In this document: in pieces, positions 7,630 to 34,225 of the stretch | Position numbering within the stretch: the stretch's first letter is position 1 | How the letters are laid out: every line of letters begins with the position of its first letter | Notes under the pieces: generated by a model | Told to the model about the DNA's origin: nothing | Seen by the model: the letters and a program-made list of their open reading frames with translations, nothing else | The model's database searches: none | Made by a program: the position numbers and the translations under genes | Assembly: GCA_016928025.1 (NCBI GenBank) | Contig: JAFGLN010000047.1 | Location: forward strand, 32,335-96,334 | DNA length: 64,000 nt | Direction of reading: 5' to 3' | Origin: Deltaproteobacteria bacterium | Lineage (GTDB): Bacteria > Desulfobacterota > Syntrophia > Syntrophales > JAFGHS01

Positions 7630-7648
7630 AACCTCCGGGTCAATCGAC

Positions 7649-12930: not shown

Positions 12931-12933
12931 GCC

Positions 12934-14379: not shown

Positions 14380-14500
14380 CGAGCAATAGTGGGCAAGGGA
14401 TAAAGCCAAAAGGGTAAAAAGTGTCCTATCTAAAAGACATTAATTGATTATAATTCTTTAGTCTTTTTGTACTTGTCACCCGTCACGCGTCACCAGTCAC
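14360..14500. repeat. inverted pair of heptamer arrays (NNGTGAC / NNGTCAC) around an AT-rich spacer
   Basis: aagtcac aagtgac cagtaac gagcaat ... ttgtcac ccgtcac gcgtcac cagtcac. Confidence 0.6.
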
Positions 14501-14526
14501 ATGATTGATATATAACGGGAGGTAAT

Positions 14527-15654: not shown

Positions 15655-16266
15655 ATGGAGGCGAAAACACAGTCGGGTTGTTTAGGTATTTTTGGGAACA
15701 GTAGGGGTTTTACATTGATTGAAATGGCCATTGTCTTGATCATCATCGGAATTATTATCGGCGCCGTTATCAAGGGAAAAGATATTATCCGCGGCGCTGA
15801 GCAAAAAAAGATTTACAGCAAATTTTTCAGCGAATGGCGAATCACCTATCTCAATTTTTACGACCGGACGGGAAAGATCCTCGGAGACAGAACGGGCAAC
15901 GGTCAGGCCCAGAGTGATACTGCCTGCACACAGCTCCTCAACGGCGGGACCGGCTACTATGGCATCTTACAGGTCGGCCTTGAATCCCCCACAACAAACG
16001 GCACCGACGTCTGCACTTACAATTATACGGACAGCGGCGGTAATATCAGAAATCTTGTTATACGATTTGCCTATGAAAGTACGGCGGGAACCTATAATTA
16101 TATGGAAATACAGAACATCCCTTATGAAATGGCCTTTGCCATCGACCGCATGGTTGATGGGGAAGCCAATGGAACCACGGGGGATTTTTTAAACACCACC
16201 GGTGCGAGCGATTGGGGAACAACACCGACAACAACCACAACGGCCCGCTGGAAAATGCGGTTTTAA
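15655..16266 (+). CDS. type IV pilin / pseudopilin (probable major pilin)
   Basis: Class III signal RG|FTLIEMAIVLIIIGIIIG with E5; AGGAGG RBS. Confidence 0.9.
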   Translation: MEAKTQSGCLGIFGNSRGFTLIEMAIVLIIIGIIIGAVIKGKDIIRGAEQKKIYSKFFSEWRITYLNFYDRTGKILGDRTGNGQAQSDTACTQLLNGGTGYYGILQVGLESPTTNGTDVCTYNYTDSGGNIRNLVIRFAYESTAGTYNYMEIQNIPYEMAFAIDRMVDGEANGTTGDFLNTTGASDWGTTPTTTTTARWKMRF

Positions 16267-16274
16267 CGATAAGG

Positions 16275-16775
16275 ATGGCCGGTATCGCTATTTTCAGGTC
16301 GCATATAACAACGCTGATCCTCGCATTTTTTTTTCTCCTGAGTGCCTGCCTTTTTTTTACGGCCGGTCGCGACTACTCTGCGGACTATAAAAAGCTGCAG
16401 GCACTCAAGGACAAACTCCATTTTATTACGATCCAGCAAAAAGAATTGAGACAGAAAAAGCGTCTGATGAGCCGCGTCGAAAGTTTCGTTAAGCGAACAA
16501 CGTCATGGGGCCTGGTTAAAGATCGATGGACATTTTATGACGTCGAGATTGAAGAGCCCATGACCTTCAACAAATTAGAAAAGATACTAAATCAAACCTT
16601 AGGCACGTCCTCTTATTTTTATAAGCCGACGGCACTCCATTTGAATACGAATGTCCAAGCGTATAAAAAACCGGACCAGAATCAGCAACCGGAGCGGTCG
16701 GCCGATTCAACATCGGTCGGAGAGCAGGATGTCATCGTTAAATTAAAAGGGGCTTTTCTGGTACAGCACCGATGA
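16275..16775 (+). CDS. membrane-anchored pilus assembly protein (PilO/MshJ-like by position)
   Basis: N-terminal TM helix plus coiled coil; overlaps the next gene by ATGA; function inferred from context. Confidence 0.55.
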   Translation: MAGIAIFRSHITTLILAFFFLLSACLFFTAGRDYSADYKKLQALKDKLHFITIQQKELRQKKRLMSRVESFVKRTTSWGLVKDRWTFYDVEIEEPMTFNKLEKILNQTLGTSSYFYKPTALHLNTNVQAYKKPDQNQQPERSADSTSVGEQDVIVKLKGAFLVQHR

Positions 16776-18073
16776 TATTTCAACGATCGAAACATTGCAT
16801 CATTGAAATCGACGGAGAAACGTTCAGTCTTTCCGGTAAAAGACTCGAACCGATCTCGGCCTTCAGTGAAACCCGTCAGGATACCTATTTTGTCTCCGAT
16901 TTCCAGGGTACGGCCATTTCACGAACGGCCACGATCGATTCACCGGTCAAATATATCGAAGTCATGGTTCGAAAAAATCTGCAGGAATCCGGAGAATTCG
17001 ATGAGCCGCTCTCCATTATCACACACTGGAAAAAGAAGAAGGGCCGCAACTTAAGCGACATCCTATTCACGGCGCTTCCGACTCGAATCCTTTATCAGTA
17101 TCTGGAGCGATTCAAAGAATTCCAGGACACGGTCATTCTGTTTTCCCCTTACACGGTGCTTTTTTCCATCTTGAAAAAGATGCGGCTTCGGGAGCCTGTC
17201 GCGATCATCTTTCAGCACAGCCGGTTTGCCGATGTGCTCATCGGTACGCAGGAGAAAGTGCACTATGCCAATCGCTGCGTCGCCTTCGATGATACGGACG
17301 AACAGATCGATGTTCTCTGGAACACGGTAAGAGCGGATATCGAAGCAGCCAAGACGGACTACGGAATAAATGTAAAAAAAGCCCTCAAGCTCCTGTGGAT
17401 CGGCAGCAAAGCCCCCCCGGTGTGGGCCGAGGATATCAAGGACGATGCCCACCCTTTTCCGGATGCGGATTTCATCTTTTCCGACGGCAATCGCTACTAT
17501 CTCCCTTTCCTCGCCGCCGTCAATGCCGTGCCCGCGTCCGGCGGCCTTTCTTCAAGCCGTGAAAAGGCTATGTACTATACCGCCCGCTATGCCCCGCTAT
17601 GCAACGCCCTCTTACTGCTTGGGGCCCTGGTATTCATCACCGGCATTGTCTTCTATTCTTATAAAAATACCATGTTACGCCAAGAAACGGCCTCTGTGGA
17701 AAAAACGGTCCGGTCGGCGTTAGGGTCTCTCTCGGAAAAAACGCCGGAAATATCCTACGAAGAGTCCCTATCACTGGTAAAGGACCTGTCGTATAGCCGA
17801 AAAGTGCCGTCCTACAAAGAGGCCATTAACGACCTTTCCGCCGCGCTTTCCGAAGGCATGAAAATAGCAAATCTTAGGATCGACTATACCAAAGAGGGGG
17901 TCATCTTAGAGGTTTCGGGAAGGGCGGACATGTCATTCAAAAAAGCGTATGTGGGATATCATGCCTTTGAAAATTACCTGCAGAACCGGGGATATGTCGT
18001 TGAGGAAAGCAAATTCAGCACGGAAATCAGTTCGTCTCTGTTCTTTTTGAAATTACGGAAAAAGATCCTATGA
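16772..18073 (+). CDS. pilus alignment-complex protein (PilM/PilN- or GspL-like)
   Basis: Large N-terminal soluble domain, single TM, coiled coil and C-terminal alpha/beta domain; operon context. Confidence 0.55.
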   Translation: MIFQRSKHCIIEIDGETFSLSGKRLEPISAFSETRQDTYFVSDFQGTAISRTATIDSPVKYIEVMVRKNLQESGEFDEPLSIITHWKKKKGRNLSDILFTALPTRILYQYLERFKEFQDTVILFSPYTVLFSILKKMRLREPVAIIFQHSRFADVLIGTQEKVHYANRCVAFDDTDEQIDVLWNTVRADIEAAKTDYGINVKKALKLLWIGSKAPPVWAEDIKDDAHPFPDADFIFSDGNRYYLPFLAAVNAVPASGGLSSSREKAMYYTARYAPLCNALLLLGALVFITGIVFYSYKNTMLRQETASVEKTVRSALGSLSEKTPEISYEESLSLVKDLSYSRKVPSYKEAINDLSAALSEGMKIANLRIDYTKEGVILEVSGRADMSFKKAYVGYHAFENYLQNRGYVVEESKFSTEISSSLFFLKLRKKIL

Positions 18074-18597
18074 AAAGAAAATATTCAGGACTGCTGACGG
18101 TTATCATAGCCTTTTCCGCCTTTTTGTTGGCTGCAGTATATGGTATCTGGACATCGGGAACAAAGATACCGGAAATACAAATGACTGAAAAGATAGCGCC
18201 GCGGCCGGCCATCGCCGTGCCGCCCGTATCGGTCGTCACCGAAATGGACAACCTTGAGGAGGAAATGGAGGCGATGATAAAATTGGAAAACGGGGACACA
18301 TCCGAGGTGGATTTGAGGCTCTTCGGCTACCAACCGGTCAAAACGGCGGAACCTGTTCTGAGAACGGAGGCGGGTAAAATGATTTCAAAAAATTATTTCC
18401 TGAGTCTTGCCTTTGTCGCGGAAAAAAAACGGTTCTGTATCATCGACGACGTCTTTTATGAGGAAGGCGGCCGGCTCCCTGACGGTTCGGCCATTGTTAA
18501 AGTTGAGCCTCAGCGGGTTATGATCAAAAGCCGCAACATGACGCATTGGATCCCTTTGGCGGAAAAAGAAGTCACGGCACAAAAGGAAGGAAAATGA
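18070..18597 (+). CDS. MshK/PilP/GspC-like membrane-anchored protein
   Basis: N-terminal TM; C-terminal FCIIDDVFYEEGGRLPDGSAIVKVEPQRVMIK beta domain; precedes the secretin. Confidence 0.6.
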   Translation: MKRKYSGLLTVIIAFSAFLLAAVYGIWTSGTKIPEIQMTEKIAPRPAIAVPPVSVVTEMDNLEEEMEAMIKLENGDTSEVDLRLFGYQPVKTAEPVLRTEAGKMISKNYFLSLAFVAEKKRFCIIDDVFYEEGGRLPDGSAIVKVEPQRVMIKSRNMTHWIPLAEKEVTAQKEGK

Positions 18598-20102
18598 AAA
18601 GATTTCTCCGGCTCGGCATCATAGTCGCTGCTCTCTTTTTGGGAGGATGCACGTTCGGCCCCTATTCGGTAAGAGATCCCAAACCGCCGTCCCCCGATAT
18701 CGACCCGGCAAGGATTGTCGGTGAATCGGAAGCCCTTACGGCCATTCAAAATAGACTGGCCGCGTCCCTGGAGAAACCGGGTTCCCGCAAAATCGACGTC
18801 GAACCCATCATGCCCGCTTATGATCCGCTGGAAGATCATCTCGTTTCTTTTTCGGTTGTCGATGAAGATCTCCCAACGGTCCTGTTTTCAATGGCGCGGG
18901 CTGTCGGCATGAATCTGATCATCAATCCGAAAATTAATGACGAGACGAAGAAGGTGACGATGAACTTCGAAAAGGTCTCGGCGGCAACGGTGCTGAAGGA
19001 AATACTGAATAATTTCGATCTGTACTACGAAACAACGGACAATATCATCCGTATCCGCCCCTATGAAGAAAGGACATTTCGGCTGAACTTCCTGGATACC
19101 AACCTCGATACGAGTTTTGACATCGGCGGCGACGTCCTCGGCGCGGGCAATGTTGAGACGGCCAGCGGATTAACGGGAAATTTCAGATTGTCGGGAAAAG
19201 GGGCAAAGAAACCGAATCCTTACGACGTTATAGACGAGATGGTCAAGCGGTTGATTTCTCCCAAAGGCGGCATGTATTCCTTGAACCGGTTATCCGGAAG
19301 CCTGTACGTCAAAGATACACCGGCCGTGATCAGATCGATCGCCACCTTGATCAACCAGTTTAAGGAGCGGATGTCCAGACAGATTCTCATCGAGGCCAGG
19401 ATCATTGAAGTGGAGCTATCCGACGGTTATCAGTACGGAATTGACTGGAACATATTGCGCAACGATCTCAAAAGGACATCCATGTTGGACAGTGCCGCCT
19501 GGTCGAAAAGCGGCCTGGTTTTGAGCGGTGTTACCGGAGCGTTCACATCGAATGCCACGATCAATTCCCTCAATACCTTCGGCAAGGTCAAGGTCGTCTC
19601 CAATCCGACCATCCGCACCAAGCATGCCCAACCGGCCATCATCAGCGTCGGCACCTCCATTACCTATAAAGAAAAGGTCAAGACGACCCGTTACACGGAC
19701 AGCAGCGATTCGGACAGCGATACCACCGAAGTGGATGTTTCCACTGTCTTTGACGGCCTCATCCTCGGTGTTATTCCCTTCATCGAACAGGACGGCAAGA
19801 TCACTCTCCTGATCAATCCCATCAAAAGCGATGTCGACAAGGACAGCCTCGAAACGCAGAGTGTGGGAAACCAGGACATCTCCCTGCCCAAGGTCAATAT
19901 CAAGGAAATCAGCACGACGATCGGACTGAATGACGGCGATATCATTATTCTCGGCGGTCTGATCGACAAGGAAAAGACCAAATCGAACGCAGGCGTCCCC
20001 GGTCTGTCGGCGATCCCGATTCTGGGATACCTTTTTAAATATGAAACCATGTCGTATGAAACCCGGGAGCTTGTCATTATTCTCCATGTTTCTATCCTAT
20101 AA
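18594..20102 (+). CDS. mshL: outer-membrane secretin, MshL-type lipoprotein
   Basis: Lipobox LGGC; QILIEARIIEVELSDGYQYGIDW, ILGGLI, GVPGLSAIPILGYLFK, ELVIIL. Confidence 0.88.
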   Translation: MKRFLRLGIIVAALFLGGCTFGPYSVRDPKPPSPDIDPARIVGESEALTAIQNRLAASLEKPGSRKIDVEPIMPAYDPLEDHLVSFSVVDEDLPTVLFSMARAVGMNLIINPKINDETKKVTMNFEKVSAATVLKEILNNFDLYYETTDNIIRIRPYEERTFRLNFLDTNLDTSFDIGGDVLGAGNVETASGLTGNFRLSGKGAKKPNPYDVIDEMVKRLISPKGGMYSLNRLSGSLYVKDTPAVIRSIATLINQFKERMSRQILIEARIIEVELSDGYQYGIDWNILRNDLKRTSMLDSAAWSKSGLVLSGVTGAFTSNATINSLNTFGKVKVVSNPTIRTKHAQPAIISVGTSITYKEKVKTTRYTDSSDSDSDTTEVDVSTVFDGLILGVIPFIEQDGKITLLINPIKSDVDKDSLETQSVGNQDISLPKVNIKEISTTIGLNDGDIIILGGLIDKEKTKSNAGVPGLSAIPILGYLFKYETMSYETRELVIILHVSIL

Positions 20103-20119
20103 GAAGATAAAACGTTATT

Positions 20120-21169
20120 ATGAGCGTCATCTTTAAAACCCTCAAAAAATTAAAAGCCCAGTCGTCCGAGAAAATCACGGACGCCGAAAGGCAAAAGCTG
20201 AAAAAAAAGACCTCGTACGTCCGGAAAATTTTCACTTCCTCGCGGACCATCATCTTTCTGATCGTTTTTATTCTTTTGTCCGGTCTGATCAGTGTTCATC
20301 TCGTCAACGTAATCAAGGGCAAAAGGGAACCGTTACGACAAAAGCAGCCATATGTCGCCAGCAACCTGGAGGGAAAAAACAACGAAGCCCTCGATGAAAC
20401 AAAAGGGATAGAAGAAACAGATTCATCGATCCCTCCCGCTCCGCAAAATATCCCCGCTGAGAAGCCGGAAGTCGGGAAGCTCTATCTGCCGCCTAAAGCG
20501 GAAACACCGGCCGCGAAGACCGACGCATCCCCTACGATGGCCGTGTCATCACCGTCGGTAAAGTTTCTCAAGTCCGCTCTCTCTGAAGAAACCCCAAAGG
20601 TCACATTGCCTGAGCGGGCAGCCGCGGCAGGGCAAAAAACCGAAACGTTGGAACGCGGTAAACCCGCACGATACTTACCCCCCGAAAGAGCGCAAACCCA
20701 TAAAAATCCGCTTCCGCCGGCACTCCCCCCATCGCCGGCAATACCGGAAGATCAAACCGTTGGGTCAAAGGCGGAATCTCCGGATATGCATTTGCAAATA
20801 CTCCAAGTTCAGAAAAACAGAGACATCAAAAACATCATTGGGGAAATCAAAGACAACTTCAAGATACGCAATGACCCAAAGACGGAAATGCTCATCGATC
20901 AGCTGGCATCGCTTAAAGGCAAGAACGATCCGTATGTCTTGAAACTGAAATCGTTTTACCTGATCAATCAGGGGAATTATGAAGCAGCGGAATCCCTGCT
21001 CAGTGCCATATTGAAAAAAGACAAAGACGACCTTGAGGCAGGCATTAATATGGCCATTCTCGAAATAAAAACGGGGCAGGTTCGGGAAGCAAAAATTCGA
21101 CTTTACCGGTTGCGGGATATACACCCCCAAGACACGCTGATACCGGATCTGATCAACAAAATTGAATAA
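20120..21169 (+). CDS. MshN/GspB-like membrane-anchored protein with C-terminal TPR
   Basis: MSVIFKTLKKL N-terminus, TM, Pro-rich linker, TPR-like helices. Confidence 0.6.
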   Translation: MSVIFKTLKKLKAQSSEKITDAERQKLKKKTSYVRKIFTSSRTIIFLIVFILLSGLISVHLVNVIKGKREPLRQKQPYVASNLEGKNNEALDETKGIEETDSSIPPAPQNIPAEKPEVGKLYLPPKAETPAAKTDASPTMAVSSPSVKFLKSALSEETPKVTLPERAAAAGQKTETLERGKPARYLPPERAQTHKNPLPPALPPSPAIPEDQTVGSKAESPDMHLQILQVQKNRDIKNIIGEIKDNFKIRNDPKTEMLIDQLASLKGKNDPYVLKLKSFYLINQGNYEAAESLLSAILKKDKDDLEAGINMAILEIKTGQVREAKIRLYRLRDIHPQDTLIPDLINKIE

Positions 21170-21666
21170 TGATTTTATCGGGGAAAAATGTCGACAAGTT
21201 CATATCGACACTGATATATGTAGGGCTGCTTGGTCTGGTGATGTGGGGCGGGAATCGTGTTGTAAATTATGCCCTGGAATCCAGGTTTCAGAAAGATTTT
21301 CTTCTGAAGTGGACTGTGGCGGTCATGTCCTATTCGGTTGAACGAGGGCAGTGGCCGCAGTTTACCGGAAGCAATCATATCCAATATATGGATAACCTCG
21401 TGACGGCCATGACGATGAGTCATGTAAATGTCCCGGCATCGAATACCAAACGCCCCTATATATACAAACTGAAAAAAATCGGCTCTCCGGAAGAGAAAAT
21501 TTTTGTTCTGTGCTTTTCAGACCGGTTGATTCTCTATGGCCTATCGGAAAAGACGTTTAAGAGAATCGATACATGGATCGATGGAAAATTCGATGAAAAG
21601 TGCGGCAAGTTCAGGGGTCGTCCCAGTGCGGATGGGAAGACGTTTATCGGTCTGTGGCGGCTGTAA
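21169..21666 (+). CDS. pilin-like protein lacking a canonical prepilin cleavage motif
   Basis: Aligns by eye with the body of pilin 15655 (IDTWIDGKFDEKCGKF vs IDRMVDGEANGTTGDF). Confidence 0.6.
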   Translation: MILSGKNVDKFISTLIYVGLLGLVMWGGNRVVNYALESRFQKDFLLKWTVAVMSYSVERGQWPQFTGSNHIQYMDNLVTAMTMSHVNVPASNTKRPYIYKLKKIGSPEEKIFVLCFSDRLILYGLSEKTFKRIDTWIDGKFDEKCGKFRGRPSADGKTFIGLWRL

Positions 21667-21706: not shown

Positions 21707-23353
21707 ATGGATGATAAAACTCTATATCTCGATTATTTCGGCTTATCCTATAATCCCTTTCCCGTCGTTCCGGATTTTGAAAAATTATTTCTCTCCGATC
21801 ATATCGATATGATGATCTCGGAACTGGTACACGGCATCCAGGCCAGAAAGGGCTTTATGGTTGTCGCTGGCGAAATCGGTCTGGGAAAGACGACCCTCAG
21901 CCGAAAGATCGTCAGCATTCTTGAAGAGCAAAACATTGAAACCTCTCTCATCTTTCATACGATCTATCAGAATCCTGAACTGCTGCAGGAAATCATCAGA
22001 GATTTCGGTTTAAAGTCCGACAGCCTGCAATTGTCCGATCTGATGCAGCTCTTAAATCAATTTCTGATCGACCAAACAAAACAGGGGAAAAATTGCGTCA
22101 TTATCATCGATGACGCCCAGAACCTCAGCATCAAAAACCTCGAACTGATCCGGATGATTTCCAATCTGGAAACCAACGAGCAAAAGCTCGTGCAAATCCT
22201 GCTGGTCGGTCAGCCCGAGTTGTTGAACAAACTGGATTCGCCGAAACTCCGCCAGTTGAAGAGCCGCATCATCATTATGGAAGAAGCCCACCCCCTGACT
22301 CGCGAAGAATTAAAAAATTATATCCTTTTCAAACTCAATACCGCCGGAAATCAGGGAAAGATTGTCGTCACAAACGGGGCCTACAAAAAAATTTACCGAT
22401 ACACCGGAGGGAACTTCCGAAAAATCAATGTGCTGATGGACCGGTGTCTCTATGTCGCGTTTCTTCATAACACGACCCATCTTGACAAGTCCGTTGTTGA
22501 TCTGGCCATTAAAGACCTCCATTCCGCCGAGTGGAAAGGCGGCCGGCCGTTTGTTCGTTACGCCGTGTCTTTGGCTGTTCTGATGATTCTCATCATCACC
22601 GGCGGTGTCCTTTACCCCGATTTCATTTCCAATCTCTTCAATCAAAAAGCTGAAACCGTCGCCTCCGGCAAAGCCATCACGAACATCGATCCGTCTGAGA
22701 AAGACGGTGGTTCTGCCACCCAACGGCTGTCATCTTCCGCGGCCCGGGAAAGAGACGCAGCCACCGATTCGGTCCCGTTAAAAAAAAGGCCTGGGGAAAG
22801 CCCGACCTCAACCTTGACGACGGAGGAACAAGCCGCTGAAACGATTTCCGTTCATCAACCGTCCCCCCAAAAACCGGGCACCGAATCTCCGGCCGTACCG
22901 GGGGCTCTGTCCGAATTTTTAACGTATTACCACCTGTCCGCCTATGAAGTTGCCTTTTATCAAGCCATGAAAAAAAATCGCTTCAAGGATATTACGGATA
23001 AAATTTACGAGGAAACACAGTATCAACTGATCCTGCTCGACCGATTGCCGACGAAGATCAAAGACAACTACGCCGTCCTTAATTTTATTTCTTCCATCTC
23101 GAAAAAGGAAATTTTTTGTCTCTTCTGGAAGCCGAGCATCAAAATCACCAAATTTTATCCGTCCTATCGGGGAAAAGAAATTCGGGAGTTAGAAGAACTC
23201 CTGATTGCCCGTAATCACTATATGTATGATCCTGACGAGACGGTCGGTGTCCACCTGATGAAGGCAGTGAGCAGTTTTCAGAAAGCACACGGCCTGGAGA
23301 TCACCGGCCATCCCGACCCGGAAACCCTGTTTCTGCTCTGTCAGGGAGGATAG
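21707..23353 (+). CDS. ExeA/MshM-family AAA ATPase with TM and C-terminal peptidoglycan-binding domain
   Basis: YLDYFGLSYNPF, GEIGLGKTT, IIIDDAQNL, LVGQPEL; AVSSFQKAHGLEITGHPDPET PG-binding motif. Confidence 0.88.
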   Translation: MDDKTLYLDYFGLSYNPFPVVPDFEKLFLSDHIDMMISELVHGIQARKGFMVVAGEIGLGKTTLSRKIVSILEEQNIETSLIFHTIYQNPELLQEIIRDFGLKSDSLQLSDLMQLLNQFLIDQTKQGKNCVIIIDDAQNLSIKNLELIRMISNLETNEQKLVQILLVGQPELLNKLDSPKLRQLKSRIIIMEEAHPLTREELKNYILFKLNTAGNQGKIVVTNGAYKKIYRYTGGNFRKINVLMDRCLYVAFLHNTTHLDKSVVDLAIKDLHSAEWKGGRPFVRYAVSLAVLMILIITGGVLYPDFISNLFNQKAETVASGKAITNIDPSEKDGGSATQRLSSSAARERDAATDSVPLKKRPGESPTSTLTTEEQAAETISVHQPSPQKPGTESPAVPGALSEFLTYYHLSAYEVAFYQAMKKNRFKDITDKIYEETQYQLILLDRLPTKIKDNYAVLNFISSISKKEIFCLFWKPSIKITKFYPSYRGKEIRELEELLIARNHYMYDPDETVGVHLMKAVSSFQKAHGLEITGHPDPETLFLLCQGG

Positions 23354-23362
23354 CAAGCCGTC

Positions 23363-25021
23363 ATGACCACACCGGAAGCCAAGAAACCCATCGGAGCGCT
23401 ACTTAAAGAAAAGGGGCTGATCACAGAGGAACACATCCAGTTTGCCCTCAAAAATCAGAAAATCAGCGGTGAACGATTGGGCGAAATTTTAGAGCACCTC
23501 TGCTTTGTAACCCAGTATGATGTGGCCGTATCCCTGTCGGAACAGGAAAATATTCCCTATATCGATGTAGATGCCGTCCTGCCGGAAAAGAACGTCCTGA
23601 GACTATTCAACAAAAATCTTTGTTTGAACAATCAGTTTCTGCCGCTCCGGATTGAGAACAAGACCATGGAGGTGGCGACGCCGGCGGTGACGAATGAGAA
23701 AGTGGGGCAACTCATTTCCCGGCAAACGGGCTTTCAGCCGAAATTTTTCATCTCGGAATCGGGAAAGATCATCAACGCCATTAACAAGTCCTATTATTTC
23801 ATCGACAACCCCGTTGAAAAACTGGTGGAAACGGAGGTCAACCTCCTGTCCCACGATCCGGAAATGGCGCGGGGAATGGATAATCTTATCAAACACATCC
23901 TGCATCTGGCCGTAAAAATGCGGGCAACGGACATTCATATCAGACCGATGGAGAAGTCTATTAATATTGCCCTGCGGGTCGACGGCGTGATGACATCCGC
24001 TTTGGCACTACCGCTCCCGTTTCGGCGGATGATCGCCAGCATCAAGATGAAGGCCGACATGGATATCGCCGAGCAGAGGATGCCCCAGGACGGGCGTTTT
24101 TCCGCCAATATCCTCAATAACGATTATGATTTCAGAGCATCCACCATCGTATCTCCGTACGGCGAAAACATCGTTCTGAGAATTTTGCCGATGCAGGCGG
24201 CCCTGATGGGCATGACCCAGCTCGGATTCTTTGAAGAGGATATCGAACGGGTGGAAAATATTTTTCAGGAACCCTTCGGCATCATACTCCTGACAGGGCC
24301 GACCGGATCGGGCAAGTCCACCACCCTGTATGCAGGCATCAGACGGCTCGATCTCTTGCGGAAAAACGTTCTCACCGTGGAAGATCCCATTGAATTCAGC
24401 ATCCCCCTGCTCCGACAGACCCAGGTCAACGAAAAGGCCGGATACACCTTTGCCAATGCCATTCGCTATTTTTTGCGGCACGATCCTGATGTGATCCTGG
24501 TTGGTGAAATTCGCGATGTGGATACGGCGGCCACGGCGATCACAGCATCGACCACGGGGCACCTGGTTTTATCCACTCTTCATACGAACAGCGCCATCGG
24601 GGCGATTCCCCGTTTGCGGGATCTGCAAATACGACCCTTTCTGATTGCCGACTCTTTAAGGGGTGTGATCAGCCAGCGGCTGGTGCGGAAAATCTGCAAC
24701 GGATGCAGGGAGGCCTACCGGCCGGAAGAGTGGGAACGGGCCTATTTGCGGGACCCTTCCATAGAGACACTGCATCGGGGCAGAGGCTGTGAAATCTGCA
24801 ACGGCTCCGGCTATTTCGGCCGCACCCTCGTGTATGAACTGCTGGTCATCAATAAAAACATCTCCCGTTTAATCGAAAAAGAGGCCGAAGTTTCCGATAT
24901 CATCAGCCAGGCAAGAGCAGACAATGAGTATGTCGACATTTTTCACACGACCGCAGCGAAGGTCAAGGAAGGCATCACGACGGTCGAAGAAGCGATTCGC
25001 GTTCTCGGTCATTTAACCTGA
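23363..25021 (+). CDS. GspE/PilB/MshE assembly ATPase with MshEN-like N-domain
   Basis: PQDGRF, GPTGSGKST, TVEDPIE, ILVGEIRD, STLHTN, CxxC...CxxC. Confidence 0.95.
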   Translation: MTTPEAKKPIGALLKEKGLITEEHIQFALKNQKISGERLGEILEHLCFVTQYDVAVSLSEQENIPYIDVDAVLPEKNVLRLFNKNLCLNNQFLPLRIENKTMEVATPAVTNEKVGQLISRQTGFQPKFFISESGKIINAINKSYYFIDNPVEKLVETEVNLLSHDPEMARGMDNLIKHILHLAVKMRATDIHIRPMEKSINIALRVDGVMTSALALPLPFRRMIASIKMKADMDIAEQRMPQDGRFSANILNNDYDFRASTIVSPYGENIVLRILPMQAALMGMTQLGFFEEDIERVENIFQEPFGIILLTGPTGSGKSTTLYAGIRRLDLLRKNVLTVEDPIEFSIPLLRQTQVNEKAGYTFANAIRYFLRHDPDVILVGEIRDVDTAATAITASTTGHLVLSTLHTNSAIGAIPRLRDLQIRPFLIADSLRGVISQRLVRKICNGCREAYRPEEWERAYLRDPSIETLHRGRGCEICNGSGYFGRTLVYELLVINKNISRLIEKEAEVSDIISQARADNEYVDIFHTTAAKVKEGITTVEEAIRVLGHLT

Positions 25022-25056: not shown

Positions 25057-26292
25057 ATGGCCTATTTCAGATACAAAGTCATGGAGCCCACGGGAAAGAT
25101 CAAGTCCGGCGTCATCAATTTACCTTATAAGGATGAAACATCGGCTTCCTTCTATCTGGGACGGGATGACCGAACGATTGTTTCCATCAAGCAAATGGGC
25201 GCCACAGTTTCTTTTATCCTCGAAAAAATGAGCGTCATCGCCCGGAAAAAACCGTCACGGCCGATCCAGGCCGAATTTTTAAGCAACATTTCCATGATGT
25301 TAAAATCCGGGATGACCCTGACGACGGCCATGCAGGAAGCGGCGAGTGGCATCAATATCCCCGGCTTCGAGCAGGACATCAACGATATGATCCTGAGGAT
25401 TCAGGGAGGAGCAACCTTCTCCGACACCGTATCCCGTTACAGCGCCATATTTCCCTCCAATATCATTCACCTCATCCGCATGGGGGAAGAAACGGGCAAG
25501 CTCGATGAGATGTTGATGGATGCCTCGGAGCATCTCCAGAGAATCGAATCGATCATCAGTGATACGAAACAGGCCCTCCTGTACCCGGCATTCGTTTTTG
25601 TGACCATGGCCTTAGGGATGTTCTTCTGGTTTTACTATGTGGTACCGAAAATTATCACTCTTTTTCAGGACATGGATGTCGCCCTCCCGACGATTACCCT
25701 CTGTCTTTTAGCAATCTCCACGTTCCTGCAGAACAACATTTTACTTTTAGCCGTCGGCCTGATCGCCGTTTTGATCGTCGTTTTTGCCGCCTACCGAGGA
25801 AATCAAGGGGTCCGGTGGGGGATGGATGCGTTTTTTCTGAAACTCCCCGTTGCGGGAACAATCATTTCCGCGTCAAATCTCGCTTTTATCACGGAATACT
25901 TCAGTATTCTCCTCAATGCCGGCATCGATATCATTCAGACCATGCACATTCTGAAAGACTCCACCAAAAACGAAATCTACCGCCAAAAACTGGACGGAAT
26001 TATTGAGGGACTGCAGCGAAGTGAAAGCATATCGGAGGCCTTCAGGAACGCCGTCGTCTTTCCCTCATTTGTCGTCCGAATGATCAATGTCGGAGAATTG
26101 AGCGGTACGCTCGATATCCAGCTGAAAAATATTGCCGACAATTACCGCAACAAGCTTTCCCTGCTGGTGGCAACTCTTGGGAAAATGATCGAGCCGATTG
26201 TCCTGATCACCGCCGGGATTCTTTTCGCCATCATTATCGGCGGCCTCTTCCTCCCGATTTACGACCTCGTCGGCCAGGTCAGCGGGCGGTAG
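25057..26292 (+). CDS. GspF/PilC/MshG inner-membrane platform protein
   Basis: GEETGKLD, ALLYPAFV, GELSGTLD, IEPIVL motifs. Confidence 0.93.
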   Translation: MAYFRYKVMEPTGKIKSGVINLPYKDETSASFYLGRDDRTIVSIKQMGATVSFILEKMSVIARKKPSRPIQAEFLSNISMMLKSGMTLTTAMQEAASGINIPGFEQDINDMILRIQGGATFSDTVSRYSAIFPSNIIHLIRMGEETGKLDEMLMDASEHLQRIESIISDTKQALLYPAFVFVTMALGMFFWFYYVVPKIITLFQDMDVALPTITLCLLAISTFLQNNILLLAVGLIAVLIVVFAAYRGNQGVRWGMDAFFLKLPVAGTIISASNLAFITEYFSILLNAGIDIIQTMHILKDSTKNEIYRQKLDGIIEGLQRSESISEAFRNAVVFPSFVVRMINVGELSGTLDIQLKNIADNYRNKLSLLVATLGKMIEPIVLITAGILFAIIIGGLFLPIYDLVGQVSGR

Positions 26293-26402: not shown

Positions 26403-29400
26403 CTACTGGCTTTGCCAGACGGTAACGCAGGGTTCGGAAAGATTCATATCGGTCAGGACTTCGCTGGCGGAAAGCCCTCGGTCATATATCCGCAACTCAT
26501 CGATGAGGCCGTCAAAGCTGTATGTCGTATCGGTCGCATTCCGCCCGCTGAGCCTCAGAACAGCTCCGACGGTCCGGTCGAGGATCGTCGCCCCCCCGAC
26601 CAAATCCGCCGGCTGCAGGACGCCGTTGATGTAAAGATCGTTCCTTGACTTTGCCGGATCGCTGCTATAGACGGCCCGGTTTTCAAAGACCGCGGCGATA
26701 TGGATCCATCGGCCTGCTATGGCAGGCGGATCGGACATATCGACGATACCGAACAGGTCGCTGTTTAAGGTGTTGAATCCAAACCGCCGGTCGCCGGCCC
26801 CGTAGTTTCTCAACCAGAAGCCATAGCTCTGCCCCTCCCAGTGGAGGGGGATTTCATTGTCCGCGCCGTCCCATTTCATCCAGAAGGTTACCGTGGCTTT
26901 TCCTCCCGGCGCCGGCAGGGCGGATAGTTCCGTAAGGCCCCCAAATCCCACCGTCCCGTTCTGCGATTTGTCGAAGGCCGCCGCCCATCCGTCACAGCCC
27001 GCCGTGAAACTTAAACCGTCCGCCGATGGGCTGCCATCGGGATGGCCGTTGCCGGAGCTGTCGGTCCAATCATTATCCATCTTATAGTAGCCGGTTGCCG
27101 ACGTATAACAGATATCGGAACAGGCGCGCGTCAGATCATCCAGGTCCAGGACCTCCTGATGAGTGAGCAGACGGTTAAAGATTCGGACCTCGTCGATCCA
27201 TCCCCGGAATCTTTGATTGGAAGCAAAGCCCCCGCCGACGGAATCCTGCTCCTGGCCGATCATCGCGCCGCCCGAACTCAGCGATACGGAACCGGTACCG
27301 GTTGAACCGTTGGTGTCCGTCAGGGCGGTCCCGTCGACATAGACCGTCTCCATCCCATCGGCGGCCTTGCGTGACCAGACAAGATGGTGCCACCGCCGGT
27401 CCTGCACACTGCCGCCGATATTGAAGTAACCGGTCTGCGTACCGTTGAGGTGTGTCAACAGCGCGTTGCCGACGGCATTCAGGTAGATCAGCATCGTATT
27501 GTCGCCCGTTGACGAACTGGCCCCTGAAAACAGCGTGTTGAGGTTTGACGACAGGTCCTCCACCCGGAACCACAGGGAAAGTGTAAAATCATCGAGATTT
27601 TGAAAAGCTTGAGACCCGAGATGAAGGTATTGATTCGTGGTATCACCCAGATTAAGGGCTCCGCCCCGGCAGATCTTCCCCGTCTGTCGGTTGCCGCCGG
27701 ACCGGTTATCCATATTGACGGCGAATCCGTGGGCCGTGCCGATGCTGTCGAGAACCTCGCCGGCGGTTCCGTTCCAGGTCGCACAACCGTCCATCCGCCA
27801 CTCGCCGACGGGATTGTAGCAGATATGGGCACATGACGTTCGGCTGCGGGTACGGACATCGCCAAGGTCCGCCGCATTCAGGGCACGCCCCCAGATCATG
27901 ACCTCGTCGATCAATCCGTGAAAATAATTGTCCGTATGCTGGGAGCTTCCGATGGTCACGGGTGATCCGTCCGCCGCATCCAGATCGGTGGCCCCGTTCC
28001 AGGTCGTGGTATTCTCATACCGGTTGCCGTTGATGGTTACGGCGACGACGCCGCTCTCATACGTTACCCCGATGAAGCTCCATGCATGGAGCCCGACATC
28101 GCCGGCATTGCCGAAATCGCCAGTGGCATCTTTGGTCTCCGCATCGAGGTACAAATGGACCGTCCCGTTCGGATTGATGCCGATTTCCAAATTATCGTTC
28201 ACCGCATCGGACGCCTTGGCAAAAATGACATTGGCCGTGCCGTGATTCGTGACGGTCGACCCCAGCGATTCCGGATTGACCCACAGGGCGACGGTAAAGG
28301 CGGTACTGGCGTCTCCCAGGGCATTACCGCCGTTCAGGATATCCCCCATGTTGAGATACCCATCGGTGCCATTGAAAAATCCGCCCTGACATAACCTGCC
28401 GGCGCCGGTTGCCCAGACGCCGTTGACGGCCGTCCCTCCCAGGCCGTTGCCGCTGGCATCCGTCACTTCACCACTGGTACCGTTCCACAAGCACTCATCC
28501 AATCGCCACTCCGCCTGCAGTCCCGCATAATAAGGCGTACCCATTGCAGAGGCATCGATATTCAGCGTGTAGGTATACGAAGGTCCCGTGTCCAGCGTAT
28601 TACTTGTGCACGTGCCGTCCCGGGCGGACAGCTTGAATTTATAACCCGTCCCCGCCGATGAGGTACCGATTTTGCGCACCGTCGCCGTATTGGCCCCCGT
28701 CGAAACCACTTCAAACCCGCCGGGGTCGGTGCCTTGAAATGTCAGGATCCAGTTTTCAAGCGGGCCGACCATGGGGCCGGTGACGGAAAAGTTCCAGGAA
28801 CAGGTGGTACTGGTACAATTGAGTATGGACGGGAGGCTGGATACCCCCAATACGCCGTTTGATACGACCAGCGGCAGGGTTGCTTCATCAATCCGGCTGT
28901 TGTTGTCCGTCACGCGCAGCGTCACATCGTACTCACCGGCACAGACGCCGATGGCCCCTTCAACAACGCCGGTGGTGACATTCGGCAGGGTCAGATTCAG
29001 GCCGCCGCCCTGTGATATGATCTCCCAAACGTACGGCGGCGTCCCGCCTTCCGCCGACGGTTCGGGATGGCTCGAGTAGTTACTCTGCCCCAGGGTTGCT
29101 CCGGGAAGGGCCGTACTGGTAATGACAACCGTATTGGCCGAACAATCCCTCGTCGTTTCCATCTCCGTCTTGATTTCATTTTCCGCCAGGGCGCGATCGT
29201 AAATCTTAACTTCATCGATCATGCCGCCGAAGAAGTTCCGGGGCACGGTATTGCCGCGGGCACCCACGAGCAGTTTGCTGGAGTTGCCGCCGATCGCACC
29301 GGTTTGGGATCTTGCGTAAACCTGCACGCCGTCCTTGTAGAGGATCTGTTGATGACCGTCATAGACGGTGGTCAGATACGTCCAGGTATCGGCAGTGACG

Positions 29401-31850
29401 GTATAAGTGCTTCCTCCGTCCCACACCCAGTGGGGCTGCCAGGCATAGTTGAGAAATCCGCTCTGGACCCTGGCCTCATAAAGATTTTCTTTGTTGTAGA
29501 TAATGTTATCGCCGGATGAGCCGTCCCATTTGATCCAGGCGGACATCGTCCAAGGGCTGGCCCCCGGATCGAGATCGCCGTCCGCCGGATCTCCCGCATC
29601 GAGATAACCGCCGTTGTCATCGTCTACACGCGTCAATACGGCCGACCGACAGATCTTACCAGCCGATGGCGTTGTCTGTGTCGGCCGGACGCCGGACCCC
29701 TGGCCGGCCGCCACACCGTTGCTGGCACCGGTTCCCGAATCGACCACTTCGCCGGCGGTTCCGTTCCAGGGATAGTTTTCCATCTGATAATCCGCCAGGG
29801 GAACAGTATAGCAGCTTCCCGAACAGACGGAACGGGTTATTTCATAGATCTCCTGAACCTCTTCCGGCGTCAGGGCCTTGTGAAAGAGCATGACTTCATC
29901 CAGCAGTCCGTTGAGATAGGCATGAAAACCGGCATAGCCCATGGTAAACGGATCAGCGGATGTCCGGGGATTTTCCGTGTAATTGATCGATGCCCGTTCC
30001 TGATTATCGATATACACCTTCATGGTGGCCTGATTGTAAACGCCCACCACATGATGCCACTTGCCATCATTCACGGTCACCGACGTCTGGGCGTTTCCGT
30101 ACCCCCCGTCCGAATAGATCTGGAACAGAATGGTCCCATTGGTCGCCAGCCACAGGCCATAGTTACGATTCGTCGAATTGCCTTTTCCGGCCAGTCGAAC
30201 CCAGTCCGACGCACTGCCGTGAACCTTGACCCAAAGCGCCAGCGTCAGGGCCCCTGTTTTCTGCAGCTCCGCATTGTCTTCCACCTCGATATAGTTGTCG
30301 ACACCGTCAAAATATCCGGCCCGGCAGTTCCTGCCGCTGCCCAGGGTTGTTGCGCCGTTCATGGCCGTTCCGTGAAGCCCCTCGTCGCCTGAGTCTCTGA
30401 CTTCCCCTTCGGTCCCGTTCCAGCTGCATTCGTCGAGATGCCACTCCGCCGAAAGATTCGCCGTATAGGGGGCGCCGGTACCCTCCGCGGTCACCCTCAG
30501 GCTGTAAGGGCCGCTGGTCACATGATTGGCGGGACAACTGTCATCCGTCGCCGTAATGGTGAAGGTATAATCGCCCGCTGTCGCCGTGCCGCTTTTCCAG
30601 AATTTGGCCTGCGTCCCCCCCAGAGGATCCATCTGAAACCCGCCGGGATTGGCACTTGTCCAATTCAGAGACCACGCCGTCAATTCTTCGAAAGGCCCCA
30701 CATAGTCTCCGGAAACGGTAAATTCCTGCGAGAACGTGGAAGCATTAACGGTAAAGTCGGGATCCGGCAGACTCGCAGACGGGGGGCTGAGGGTCAGGGT
30801 CCCGGTTATAACGGTAATATCGAAGTTCTTCCGGTCATAATTATCGGCATTGGTGCGGTCAGCGGCTTTAACGGAGATTGCGTAAGGGGATCCCGTATGG
30901 CACACATCAAGTGTCCCCGTCAGAGTTCCCGACCAGAGATTCAGACTGATTTTTCCGGATAATTCCGCAGGAACCGATTCCAGATACCAGTAATAGTCCG
31001 GTGCGGATTCACCGCCCGTCGCCTGAAATGAATGGGACAGATTGGCACCGATTCTGCTGCTGGTTATGATATTCTGAACGATCGTCACCGTCGGCGCCGC
31101 CAGACATTGAGCATCCGACGCGCAATCCGGATCTTCACAGTCGACCAGGGCATCGCCATCGTCATCAACCCCGTTGCTGCAGTTCTCAGACGAACCACCG
31201 CTGCCGCTCCCGCCACTGCCGGCGGTGCAATTCCGGCCGATCAGAATCATAAACGAGGCCGTCCTCATCAGATCGTCGTACGATGTCGTTATGACCTGGT
31301 CAGGATCATCAAATTGCGCATCGTCATCTCCATTAAGCCCGTCAAAGAAGCCGTTGGAGCCGTCACGGTCCTTCAAGCCGCCGCTGACGATGACATAAGC
31401 CTGATGGGTTTGCGTGCCGTTCTGCGTAATATAAAGCTTGCCCGAGTCAAACGCCGCCGTTCCGGCATTGGCGAGAACATTGCACAGCGTGGTGGTCGTC
31501 GCTGCCGTCAGATCCGAATAGACGCCATATTTTATTCGATTGCCCCAGACATCATCGCCGGAAGAAAGCCCAAGGTCACGAAAGGGAAGATTACCAAAAT
31601 AGACACCCGTGTCTCCCTGACCGTCTGTGTCGCTGTCGGCAAAGGGAAGTCGGCCGTTTGCCGTCAAATACCCCTGGACGGCATACTCAACCTGCTCCAG
31701 GACGGCCCTGGTCTTTTTTATCTTGCCCGATTCAATCAGAGAGGGCAAGACCGTCGCCATGATCGAGATGATAATACCGATAATCACCAGGACGATGGTC
31801 AGTTCAATCAGCGTAAAGCCCGCTTCCCGTATCGATCCGCATCTGCCCAT
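26403..31850 (-). CDS. giant pilin-fused adhesin (~1815 aa): prepilin N-terminus, Ig-like domains and five LamG-like domains
   Basis: AG|FTLIELTIVLVIIGII; repeated (E/D)(W/Y)x(L/M)(D/E)..WNGT.GEV.D and F.G.(I/L)DE(V/L).I...AL motifs; GGAG RBS before ATG 31850. Confidence 0.88.
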   Translation of the reverse strand: MGRCGSIREAGFTLIELTIVLVIIGIIISIMATVLPSLIESGKIKKTRAVLEQVEYAVQGYLTANGRLPFADSDTDGQGDTGVYFGNLPFRDLGLSSGDDVWGNRIKYGVYSDLTAATTTTLCNVLANAGTAAFDSGKLYITQNGTQTHQAYVIVSGGLKDRDGSNGFFDGLNGDDDAQFDDPDQVITTSYDDLMRTASFMILIGRNCTAGSGGSGSGGSSENCSNGVDDDGDALVDCEDPDCASDAQCLAAPTVTIVQNIITSSRIGANLSHSFQATGGESAPDYYWYLESVPAELSGKISLNLWSGTLTGTLDVCHTGSPYAISVKAADRTNADNYDRKNFDITVITGTLTLSPPSASLPDPDFTVNASTFSQEFTVSGDYVGPFEELTAWSLNWTSANPGGFQMDPLGGTQAKFWKSGTATAGDYTFTITATDDSCPANHVTSGPYSLRVTAEGTGAPYTANLSAEWHLDECSWNGTEGEVRDSGDEGLHGTAMNGATTLGSGRNCRAGYFDGVDNYIEVEDNAELQKTGALTLALWVKVHGSASDWVRLAGKGNSTNRNYGLWLATNGTILFQIYSDGGYGNAQTSVTVNDGKWHHVVGVYNQATMKVYIDNQERASINYTENPRTSADPFTMGYAGFHAYLNGLLDEVMLFHKALTPEEVQEIYEITRSVCSGSCYTVPLADYQMENYPWNGTAGEVVDSGTGASNGVAAGQGSGVRPTQTTPSAGKICRSAVLTRVDDDNGGYLDAGDPADGDLDPGASPWTMSAWIKWDGSSGDNIIYNKENLYEARVQSGFLNYAWQPHWVWDGGSTYTVTADTWTYLTTVYDGHQQILYKDGVQVYARSQTGAIGGNSSKLLVGARGNTVPRNFFGGMIDEVKIYDRALAENEIKTEMETTRDCSANTVVITSTALPGATLGQSNYSSHPEPSAEGGTPPYVWEIISQGGGLNLTLPNVTTGVVEGAIGVCAGEYDVTLRVTDNNSRIDEATLPLVVSNGVLGVSSLPSILNCTSTTCSWNFSVTGPMVGPLENWILTFQGTDPGGFEVVSTGANTATVRKIGTSSAGTGYKFKLSARDGTCTSNTLDTGPSYTYTLNIDASAMGTPYYAGLQAEWRLDECLWNGTSGEVTDASGNGLGGTAVNGVWATGAGRLCQGGFFNGTDGYLNMGDILNGGNALGDASTAFTVALWVNPESLGSTVTNHGTANVIFAKASDAVNDNLEIGINPNGTVHLYLDAETKDATGDFGNAGDVGLHAWSFIGVTYESGVVAVTINGNRYENTTTWNGATDLDAADGSPVTIGSSQHTDNYFHGLIDEVMIWGRALNAADLGDVRTRSRTSCAHICYNPVGEWRMDGCATWNGTAGEVLDSIGTAHGFAVNMDNRSGGNRQTGKICRGGALNLGDTTNQYLHLGSQAFQNLDDFTLSLWFRVEDLSSNLNTLFSGASSSTGDNTMLIYLNAVGNALLTHLNGTQTGYFNIGGSVQDRRWHHLVWSRKAADGMETVYVDGTALTDTNGSTGTGSVSLSSGGAMIGQEQDSVGGGFASNQRFRGWIDEVRIFNRLLTHQEVLDLDDLTRACSDICYTSATGYYKMDNDWTDSSGNGHPDGSPSADGLSFTAGCDGWAAAFDKSQNGTVGFGGLTELSALPAPGGKATVTFWMKWDGADNEIPLHWEGQSYGFWLRNYGAGDRRFGFNTLNSDLFGIVDMSDPPAIAGRWIHIAAVFENRAVYSSDPAKSRNDLYINGVLQPADLVGGATILDRTVGAVLRLSGRNATDTTYSFDGLIDELRIYDRGLSASEVLTDMNLSEPCVTVWQSQ

Positions 31851-32377: not shown

Positions 32378-34225
32378 ATGTGGAAACAAAAAATCGTCTC
32401 TGCGGCGGAAATGCTGGCAAAGATTGAACCAGGCATGAGTATATTCCTGGGTACGGGCATGGCCGAACCTCGAACACTGGTCAAGCACCTGATGGAATCG
32501 ACTCAGCCCAACCTGCAGGATTTGGAGTTGATCCAACTGGTCAGCCTCGGTGATACGGTGGCCATTGATGAGCGTTATGTGAGAAAATTCCGCTTGAAAA
32601 CATTTTTTGCCGGCTGGATCGCCTCCGATGCCATCAGCGAGGGACGGGTTGATCTTATTCCGAGCCGCTTTTCATGTGTTCCTTGGCTTATTAAAACAGG
32701 CGCCATTCCCATTGATGTGGCTTTCATTCAGGTCACCCCTCCGGACGACAACGGCTATGCCTATCTGGCGGGTGCCTCTGTGGAGAGGTACGCGATGGAA
32801 ACAGCCAAAATCGTCGTCGGCGAAATCAATTCAGAAATTCCTCGGACGATGGGCGATACGCTGGTGCATATGGATGAATTTGACTATCTGGTCGAAGCGA
32901 CACAACCGCCCCTTTATGTGGAACGTTGGCCACTGCAGGACGTTTATCTGAAAATTTCCGCCAATATCGCGTCAGCCGTCAAAGACGGCAGTTGTATCTC
33001 TTATGGTCTCGGTCCTCTTTATGAAGCGCTGGCCCAAACCCTGGCAACAAAAAAGAATCTCGGCGTCCATTCGCCTTTTTTTACGGACGCTCTGATGGAG
33101 TTGGTGAAAAGCGGCGCCGTGACCAACCGCAATAAAGGCATCTTCCGCGGCAAGGTGTGTGCTTCCTATGTCATCGGCACCAAGGAATTGATGCAATGGC
33201 TGGATTTAAATCCCATGGTTGAATTTCAGCCCCAGGACATCGTCATGGATCCCCGGATCATCGGTCTCAACGAGAACATGGTCGCTATTTTCCCCGCCCG
33301 TAAAGTGGATCTGACAGGCAATATCGCTTTGCACACAGGCAAGGGTAATGTCACCGCCGGACCCGGCAACGTCCAGGAACTCTTTATGGGGGCGACATTA
33401 TCGAAAAACGGCCGGACGATCTTTGCCCTGCCCAGCCGCAATCGCGAGGGAGAGCCCAATATCCTGCTTTCGCTGGAGAAATATCCTTTTCAATTTACCA
33501 ACCGCGAATCTTTGGATCTCGTCGTTACGGAATATGGCGTGGCCTTTCTGATGGGCAGGACATTGCGTGAACGGGCTCAAGCACTTATTGAAATCGCCCA
33601 TCCCGATGACCGGGAGGAACTGGTCAGGCAGGCCAAGGAAATGAAGATGATCTATGCCGATCAGATTTACTTTCCCGAATCCGGCCATCTGTATCCGGAA
33701 AAAATCGCCTGCTCCCATGAATTTAAAGACAGTCTGACCGTCCGGTTCCGGGCCATCAAACCATCCGATGAAGAAGAAATGCGCCGTTTGTTTTACCGGT
33801 TCTCCGATCAGGCCGTTTATTACCGCTATTTCAGCCCGATCAAAACCATGCCTCATCGTAAAATGCAGGAATATGTATCGGTGGATTATCGATATACCAT
33901 GTCCATTGTCGCCATCATCGATAAGGCCGGCGTGGAAAAGATCATCGGCGAGGGCCGATATGCCCGTCTACCGGGCGATTCCTTTGCCGATACGGCGTTT
34001 ATTGTCGACGAAAACTATCAGGGAATGGGAATTTCGTCTTACCTATTTGAACTGCTTATTCGCGCCGCCCGTGAGGAAGGCATTGCCGGATTCACCGCCG
34101 ATGTCATTGAGAGCAACAGGGCCATGCTGAAAGTTTACGAGAAAGCACCTTTCCCGGTGCAAATCGTGTTGGTCCATGGGGTGTATAGAATAACCATTCC
34201 ATTTGAAACGCCTCCAAGTCAATGA
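32378..34225 (+). CDS. acetyl-CoA hydrolase/transferase-like domain fused to a Pat-type GNAT acetyltransferase
   Basis: DVAFIQVTPPD, VVTEYGVAFL...ERAQALIEIAHPDDRE; C-terminal RAIKPSDEE...YYRYF...YQGMGI. Confidence 0.85.
   Translation: MWKQKIVSAAEMLAKIEPGMSIFLGTGMAEPRTLVKHLMESTQPNLQDLELIQLVSLGDTVAIDERYVRKFRLKTFFAGWIASDAISEGRVDLIPSRFSCVPWLIKTGAIPIDVAFIQVTPPDDNGYAYLAGASVERYAMETAKIVVGEINSEIPRTMGDTLVHMDEFDYLVEATQPPLYVERWPLQDVYLKISANIASAVKDGSCISYGLGPLYEALAQTLATKKNLGVHSPFFTDALMELVKSGAVTNRNKGIFRGKVCASYVIGTKELMQWLDLNPMVEFQPQDIVMDPRIIGLNENMVAIFPARKVDLTGNIALHTGKGNVTAGPGNVQELFMGATLSKNGRTIFALPSRNREGEPNILLSLEKYPFQFTNRESLDLVVTEYGVAFLMGRTLRERAQALIEIAHPDDREELVRQAKEMKMIYADQIYFPESGHLYPEKIACSHEFKDSLTVRFRAIKPSDEEEMRRLFYRFSDQAVYYRYFSPIKTMPHRKMQEYVSVDYRYTMSIVAIIDKAGVEKIIGEGRYARLPGDSFADTAFIVDENYQGMGISSYLFELLIRAAREEGIAGFTADVIESNRAMLKVYEKAPFPVQIVLVHGVYRITIPFETPPSQ

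Follow-up and report, generated by a model that had tools for sequence, protein, structure and literature searches.

The 64 000-nucleotide stretch of DNA analysed here (the window) contains a gene that opens as a type IV prepilin and continues for 1815 codons, and its 3′ end faces that of a pilus-assembly cluster. The locus raises the question of what a pilin of this size does, and of whether its cargo is a fixed part of it. The reading that we favour, with a probability of roughly 0.7, is that the product is a giant minor pilin, likely cut at Gly11, which is built into the tip of the adjacent MSH-type pilus and is predicted to present five LamG domains there as a multivalent adhesin. The coordinates of all features are given in Table 1.

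The gene is a single open frame on the minus strand (31904 or 31850 to 26403). The ATG at 31850, with GGAG immediately 5′ of it, gives a protein of 1815 residues; an alternative upstream GTG start gives 1833. The frame is not an assembly artefact, because overlapping contigs of the likely source run span it with zero differences and because eight other full-length versions (1815–1824 residues) exist with the same modules at 67–90% identity per module. The class III signal (AG↓FTLIE, beginning at residue 10) was described as intact in the first-pass annotation. It scored above the cut-offs of both PF07963 (N_methyl; 22.9 against 21.2 bits) and TIGR02532 (22 against 16.3 bits), and G11, F12, T13, L14, I15 and E16 are the same in every one of the 40 long homologues. 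The pilin domain of about 200 residues proposed in the same annotation was recovered as a predicted fold: the isolated domain was modelled by AlphaFold2 with a pLDDT of 89.9, as a helix at residues 3–54 and a sheet, and 29 of its first 30 structural matches were named pilins, pseudopilins or pili. The top match (Z 7.3, rmsd 2.1, 89 residues aligned) has a Z score in the middling range of the tool.

In an AlphaFold2 model of residues 12–904 (mean pLDDT 88.6) the first helix is 52 residues long, the Gly/Ser linker is of low confidence and the Ig region is beta-rich; the model matched LG domains in Foldseek. The Gly/Ser linker and the acidic Cys motif claimed earlier were located at residues 211 and 222, respectively; the motif corresponds to an NCBIfam acid_disulf_rpt match at residues 220–249, under cut-off (Table 1). 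Its residues D229, D231, D233, C238, D240, D242, C243 and C249 are invariant in the long homologues, and we take it to be probably calcium-binding, as such Asp-rich loops are. The proposed order of two Ig-like units, two LamG, two Ig-like and three LamG also held. Five Laminin_G_3 (PF13385) stretches were found with Pfam (E 8e-106). The Ig units of the query gave no He_PIG match in Pfam at E 0.001; their assignment comes from the homologues, which do match He_PIG, from the similarity of Ig2 to Ig4 (37% identity, E 3e-16) and from the beta-rich model. The motif WNGT.GEV.D, said to open most of the LamG units, stands at the start of four of the five (residues 477, 695, 1122 and 1359). By every sequence test the protein is a modular type IV pilin and not MshQ.

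Two other identities were considered and rejected. The match to the TafC family reached 153.7 bits against a cut-off of 410, with only LamG in common; TafC comes from the Tat fimbriae of haloarchaea. Neurotoxin receptor-binding domains appeared among the Pfam and Foldseek matches, but these reflect the generic LamG fold at 9–13% identity and were dismissed as a sign of a toxin. Foreign origin could not be argued from composition. The comparison with the flanks, which had been suggested as a check, gave a GC content of 57.5% and a GC3 of 0.68 for the gene and 46–52% GC for the cluster genes, yet among 1087 long ORFs this GC3 ranks at the 86th percentile, and it is similar to that of nearby housekeeping genes, so that the comparison was uninformative. 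Equally uninformative were a promoter scan, in which no sigma-70-like site was found on the minus strand upstream of the gene, and the gap between mshG and the gene, in which no terminator was found.

Table 1. Features of the giant pilin gene and of the adjoining pilus cluster (window coordinates).
Feature	Position	Strand	Remarks
Giant modular pilin gene	26403..31850	-	1815 aa, mature chain ~192 kDa
Leader peptide, residues 1-11	31818..31850	-	Ends at Gly-1 of the class III signal
Pilin domain, residues 12 to ~208	31227..31817	-	Predicted long alpha1 helix and beta-sheet
Gly/Ser linker, residues 211-221	31188..31220	-	Low-confidence in structure models, likely flexible
Acidic double-disulfide motif, residues 222-249	31104..31187	-	NF033662, 36.1 bits, under cut-off of 41
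First Ig-like pair (stalk), residues 253-458	30477..31094	-	
LamG 1	29820..30476	-	Type E; slot exchanged most often among relatives
LamG 2	29139..29819	-	Type B; 45-50% identical to LamG units of DUF6701 (MshQ-type) proteins
Second Ig-like pair, residues 905-1102	28545..29138	-	
LamG 3	27831..28544	-	Type C; extra unit, occupies the first slot in many relatives
LamG 4	27111..27830	-	Type D; pentraxin-like (PF00354, E 4e-22)
LamG 5	26406..27110	-	Type M; terminal, without the WNGT motif
203-aa pilin	15655..16266	+	Class III signal; likely major (MshA-role) pilin
Three conserved ORFs (187, 433, 175 aa)	16212..18597	+	No family match
MshL secretin	18594..20102	+	TIGR02519, 270.4 bits, cut-off 250.2
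TPR protein, MshN-like	20120..21169	+	
orf165, 165 aa, paralogue of the major pilin	21169..21666	+	Degenerate N-terminus, no F1, no E5
ExeA/MshM-like AAA ATPase	21707..23353	+	Peptidoglycan-binding domain
MshE-type extension ATPase	23363..25021	+	MshEN domain (PF05157); c-di-GMP motif NF053729, 55 bits, cut-off 38
MshG-type platform protein	25057..26292	+	PF00482

The giant pilin gene and mshG lie tail to tail across a gap of 110 bp. The secretin of the cluster scored above the MshL cut-off and not above that of GspD. The T2SSE, MshEN and T2SSF models used to assign MshE and MshG are common to other type IV filaments, and the ExeA-like AAA ATPase and the 203-residue pilin matched no MshM- or MshA-specific model. 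From their position, the ORFs of 187, 433 and 175 residues are likely to be inner-membrane alignment proteins. No prepilin peptidase is encoded within the locus; a peptidase domain is encoded elsewhere in the genome. A motif scan of the genome found ten class III pilins, two of them in the cluster. The other eight are spread over three further contigs, where they make up apparent T2SS and type IVa sets; one of these contigs also carries PilY1. Since just two of the ten lie in the cluster, it is without MshD/O/P-type pilins, and no signal-bearing minor pilin other than the giant one was found there. No DUF6701 (MshQ-type) gene was found in the source genome, which is 89% complete, so that absence of such a gene is not proven, and none in 151 genomes of the class; the built-in controls of this search were silent, and the same search was positive in two of five other genomes. 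A plasmid search with a DUF6701 protein as query returned just weak LamG matches.

Around these genes, a LutABC-like cluster (CCG, LUD/4Fe-4S and LUD domains; 12184–15198) lies directly upstream of the pilus cluster. An 873-residue ABC permease (7586–10207), in which BPD_transp_1 is matched twice and large soluble regions are inserted, comes after phosphonate-type binding and ATPase genes. On the other side, an acetyl-CoA hydrolase/transferase fused to a GNAT domain (32378–34225) is divergent from the pilin gene and has two more full-length paralogues in the genome.

The product of orf165 matched the profile of the major pilin over 134 columns (probability 96.6, E 6e-10), which makes it a full-length paralogue. 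Charged residues replace F1 to E5, Gly5 aligns with the −1 position and no cleavage site is recognisable. It occurs in four of 61 related genomes, the same four that have a close match to the pilin domain, and in two of 401 genomes of the phylum. A third genome among the 401 (locus G387) has the cluster and a 939-residue family member with neither orf165 nor an MshM-like gene; orf165 is therefore not an obligate partner of the giant pilin. The protein is possibly an uncleaved or non-canonically processed pilin, and its gene is a good marker of this cluster type.

In the proposed mechanism, a shared prepilin peptidase of the PilD type would cleave the leader at Gly11. The giant pilin would then enter the filament first or nearly first by its pilin helix, at or near the tip, because its bulky cargo would hinder packing above it. 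The Ig stalks and LamG heads would be pushed through the MshL secretin as a flexible chain of small domains, and the disulfides and acidic motif would stiffen this chain. Adhesin regions of more than 3000 residues are reported for PilC/PilY1, so that size alone does not forbid secretin passage. The degenerate pilin orf165 may act as a cap or partner; in the accessible text on S. sanguinis, PilA was modelled as the capping subunit (PMC9934059). Control by c-di-GMP would be exerted via MshE. The LamG domains may bind glycan or matrix; LamG folds also bind proteins (laminin, neurexin), and 'lectin' is thus not established for the giant pilin. In this way a single protein would do the job proposed for MshDOP and MshQ in canonical MSH pili.

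Glu5 is retained in the giant pilin, whereas GspK and S. sanguinis PilA, both of them capping subunits, are without it (PMC9934059); the giant pilin may therefore not be the top subunit. A retained Glu5 permits a subunit above the giant pilin, and the linker is of low confidence and likely flexible, both of which would suit a minor pilin along the shaft, or one that begins a short stub, with the LamG array held at the cell surface. Given a flexible linker, Raynaud 2021 leaves room for a place in the shaft (PMC8179133). We nevertheless regard these placements as unlikely. Some 170 kDa of cargo would need to pass the secretin beside the filament, the modular pilins that have been studied are modelled at tips, and the MSH-type cluster holds no other tip pilins.

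The tip-adhesin reading of the first-pass annotation had been tied to linkage with the pilus operon in other genomes and to variable cargo on the same pilin N-terminus, and both were surveyed. With the N-terminus as query, 52 long proteins were retrieved, of which 40 were family members, and 148 shorter ones, of which 120 were listed. These matches and the members from the loci, minus six duplicates, gave 163 rows with a pilin domain. G↓F[TS]LxE is present in 157 of the 163 rows listed, and the other six start within the pilin domain. Among these listed matches, two LamG units are carried by 59 rows, four by 33, five by three and one or three by seven; a further 37 carry instead a repeat domain, the predicted propeller described below, and 24 (mostly fragments) neither. 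The named loci are mostly from Desulfobacterota (Desulfobacterales, Syntrophaceae, Thermodesulfobacteriota).

Of 21 distinct close loci, seven had a contig edge or no cluster in the available DNA. In all 14 that could be assessed, no more than 1.4 kb separates the gene from the 3′ end of mshG; it is convergent in 11 and on the same strand in three. The earlier picture of a separate, convergent and swappable gene thus stood in part: the three co-directional loci depart from it, and it is modules inside the gene that are exchanged, the gene itself staying at the mshG end. The system is patchy among relatives. The outer neighbours of the cluster vary between genomes, which is consistent with a mobile island.

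Several single observations were made among these sequences. At two loci, a pair of family genes stands in tandem and the two differ in their LamG cargo; module exchange may draw on such pairs (L038, 4263–9333; L040, 9980–14995). In L045 (3180–9468) the msh genes are split into several short ORFs with the pilin gene intact, through decay or sequencing error. Six members of 229–264 residues (P0133, P0138, P0148, P0150, P0168 and P0170), some on long contigs, seem to stop after the pilin domain and are possibly cargo-free. In distant MSH-like clusters (L026–L031, L052, L057, L058, L100 and L114) the major pilin adjoins a second pilin of 290–600 residues, one with He_PIG domains; this second pilin is likely the equivalent, with short cargo, of the giant one.

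The cargo itself was compared by module. At 48% identity, an arbitrary threshold for LamG types, 292 LamG units fell into 20 single-linkage groups. The order is E-B/C-D-M in the query and C-A, G-A, E-B/D-A, F-B/D-A and others in relatives, in which the same type is found in different slots. Other relatives carry, in place of two to five LamG units, a predicted seven-bladed beta-propeller (the C-terminal 350 residues of P0053, P0140, L046 and L047, with about seven repeats of 50 residues). The propeller matched no Pfam family; its nearest Atlas models included phage proteins and a Planctomycetota cluster with N_methyl in 25% of its members. One of the closest pilin heads among the matches listed, at 70% identity, bears the propeller.

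A quick tree of the pilin domain was built from 135 rows, after the exclusion of 28 that had no cargo or no signal. Propeller versus LamG cargo requires 12 changes on it, at least five of them forced by strong branches, and a single propeller clade was rejected (p-AU 1.7e-7) on a hand-picked subset of 36 rows chosen after the tree was seen. The type of the first module requires 49 changes (minimum 11, shuffled mean 83), and is thus clustered yet far from tree-like. Among pairs with pilin domains at least 90% identical, the first cargo module differs in 31 of 64 (the pairs being non-independent). Eight pairs were mapped. In seven, one module is 22–33% identical between flanks that are 75–96% identical, with breakpoints at a conserved entry motif and an exit motif at the Cys-linked junction; in the eighth the divergence spans a longer stretch. 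Two units in the window share the entry motif as a 31-nt repeat at 90% identity. As judged from these alignments, cargo is exchangeable by whole module on near-identical pilin heads, and the gene is likely a re-targetable tip adhesin.

No silent cassettes were found, as a second match to any module was absent from the source genome; no orphan modules were seen among ORFs of at least 80 residues in the loci read, and no convincing inverted repeat flanks the giant pilin gene. The lack of spare cassettes points away from programmed variation and towards modules that pass from one genome, or one tandem copy, to another. It would also fit an account in which the cargo became varied through old duplications and differential loss, together with assembly chimeras, and not through continuing exchange. 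Chimeras or sorting could start from the tandem genes that differ in cargo, the first-module type is clustered relative to the shuffled mean, and nearly all family sequences come from metagenome assemblies, so that any one swap pair could be a chimera. Against this, the combination C-A occurs in 15 and G-A in 13 of the rows listed, many of them interleaved within one tight pilin clade; swapped modules so much more divergent than their flanks are not expected from divergence after duplication; and the two partners of a swap were recovered from different sources, some of them being represented by several members. We therefore judge this account improbable. Under continuing exchange, homologous recombination in the conserved Cys-linked junctions that frame the LamG units would retune specificity over evolutionary time.

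That the pilin-like N-terminus is an inner-membrane anchor only, or that the cluster secretes the LamG chain, so that the protein is never in a pilus, is very improbable: the best structural matches of the pilin domain are the T2SS pseudopilins EpsG and PulG and an ExeA-like ATPase is present in the cluster, but a bare anchor would not need the invariant G−1, F1 and E5 and a whole conserved globular pilin domain, the secretin is over the MshL and not the GspD cut-off, and a separate T2SS pseudopilin set lies elsewhere in the genome.

The LamG units were also traced outside the family, as the first-pass annotation had associated their opening motif with MshQ-like proteins. The best 150 of 75 441 matches to a profile of LamG 1–2 comprised family members and many generic multi-LamG proteins. 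Six of 21 hand-picked non-family matches carry DUF6701, and in three of these DUF6701 proteins there are units 45–50% identical to LamG 2 or LamG 3 (types B and C), which bears the association out. A fragment 70% identical to LamG 5 is called 'MshQ' in the naming of its source. Related cassettes thus ride two carriers, a C-terminal DUF6701 and an N-terminal pilin. At two loci in other genomes, a DUF6701 gene (about 1200 residues) follows the msh minor pilins, the position described for MshQ (PMC13533445). Five DUF6701 proteins of 1.8–4.1 thousand residues have from four to 15 LamG units (P0203, P0204, P0206, P0276 and P0337). A further protein, P0332, combines a unit 47% identical to LamG 2 with an endosialidase chaperone (Peptidase_S74) domain, which suggests that the cassette occurs in tail-fibre-like proteins.

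Taken further, the locus may be put forward, tentatively, as an MSH pilus subtype without the three-pilin tip complex and MshQ, in which the giant pilin and a Glu5-less paralogue of the major pilin would start and cap the filament, and in which the binding domains would come from horizontally shared, framed LamG and propeller cassettes, a pool that would also feed MshQ-type adhesins. If so, anaerobic sulfate reducers and syntrophs would possess a combinatorial receptor-binding arm, like that produced by phage tail-fibre shuffling. According to a recent model, pilus assembly throughout the type IV filaments is licensed by a PilIJK-type trimer with a donated beta-strand (PMC13533445). The generality of this rule could be tested in a diderm system of the MSH type whose locus is without such a trimer, which would also test the maximum size of pilin that fits through a secretin. 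The natural swap pairs differ in a single domain and could be used as they stand to match LamG types with their ligands; they could show how partner- or surface-dependent anaerobes choose their attachment targets.

Compared with known systems, the cluster agrees with the MSH system of Denise et al. 2019 in being a single locus with MshL, MshE, MshG, an MshN-like protein, a putative MshM-like protein and a pilin, and with the peptidase elsewhere; the definition, in the accessible sections of that paper, has the peptidase lacking in the locus (PMC6668835). It differs in having only two canonical pilins and a degenerate paralogue. Those sections name the system for Gamma- and Epsilonproteobacteria and Chrysiogenetes, and the present lineage is not among the groups given there (PMC6668835). 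In contrast to the Vibrio-type MSH locus, in which mshDOP is followed by mshQ, the cluster in the window has neither mshDOP-type pilins nor mshQ. MshQ resembles the giant pilin as a large modular adhesin at the end of the MSH locus with related LamG types B and C. It is, however, a non-pilin, predicted in the available text to dock on MshP by a C-terminal beta-strand (PMC13533445), whereas the giant pilin has an N-terminal pilin carrier and no DUF6701 (no PF20419 match).

The first-pass annotation had ranked the gene as a candidate for an undescribed system, and this did not survive comparison with the modular pilins. Raynaud 2021, as far as its text was available, counted 1219 of these, the commonest architecture being a pilin with PF13385 (229), so that LamG/ConA pilins are the commonest kind (PMC8179133). 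Dataset S1 lists pilin-LamG2 (nine proteins), pilin-LamG2-Ig-LamG2 (three) and pilin-Ig-LamG2-Ig-LamG2 (one), so that a four-LamG architecture is already on record; it has no row with five LamG units, and Fig. 8 includes a Desulfobacterales modular pilin as an example (PMC8179133). In the open-access literature we found no published account of the giant pilin family, its locus or its cassette exchange, and no experimentally studied member. A pilin with grafted LamG/ConA modules is nonetheless an established design, the surprise is limited accordingly, and the giant pilin is a large variant of the known modular pilins. With them, and with S. sanguinis PilC, a pilin-Ig-ConA protein with demonstrated glycan binding in the accessible text of PMC9934059, it shares a class III signal and pilin module followed by Ig-like and ConA/LamG modules. 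It differs from PilC in size (~192 kDa against 52.8 kDa), in its five LamG units and acidic disulfide motif and in belonging to a diderm MSH-type machine, and its family differs from other modular pilins in showing exchange at the level of the module, including the propeller alternative.
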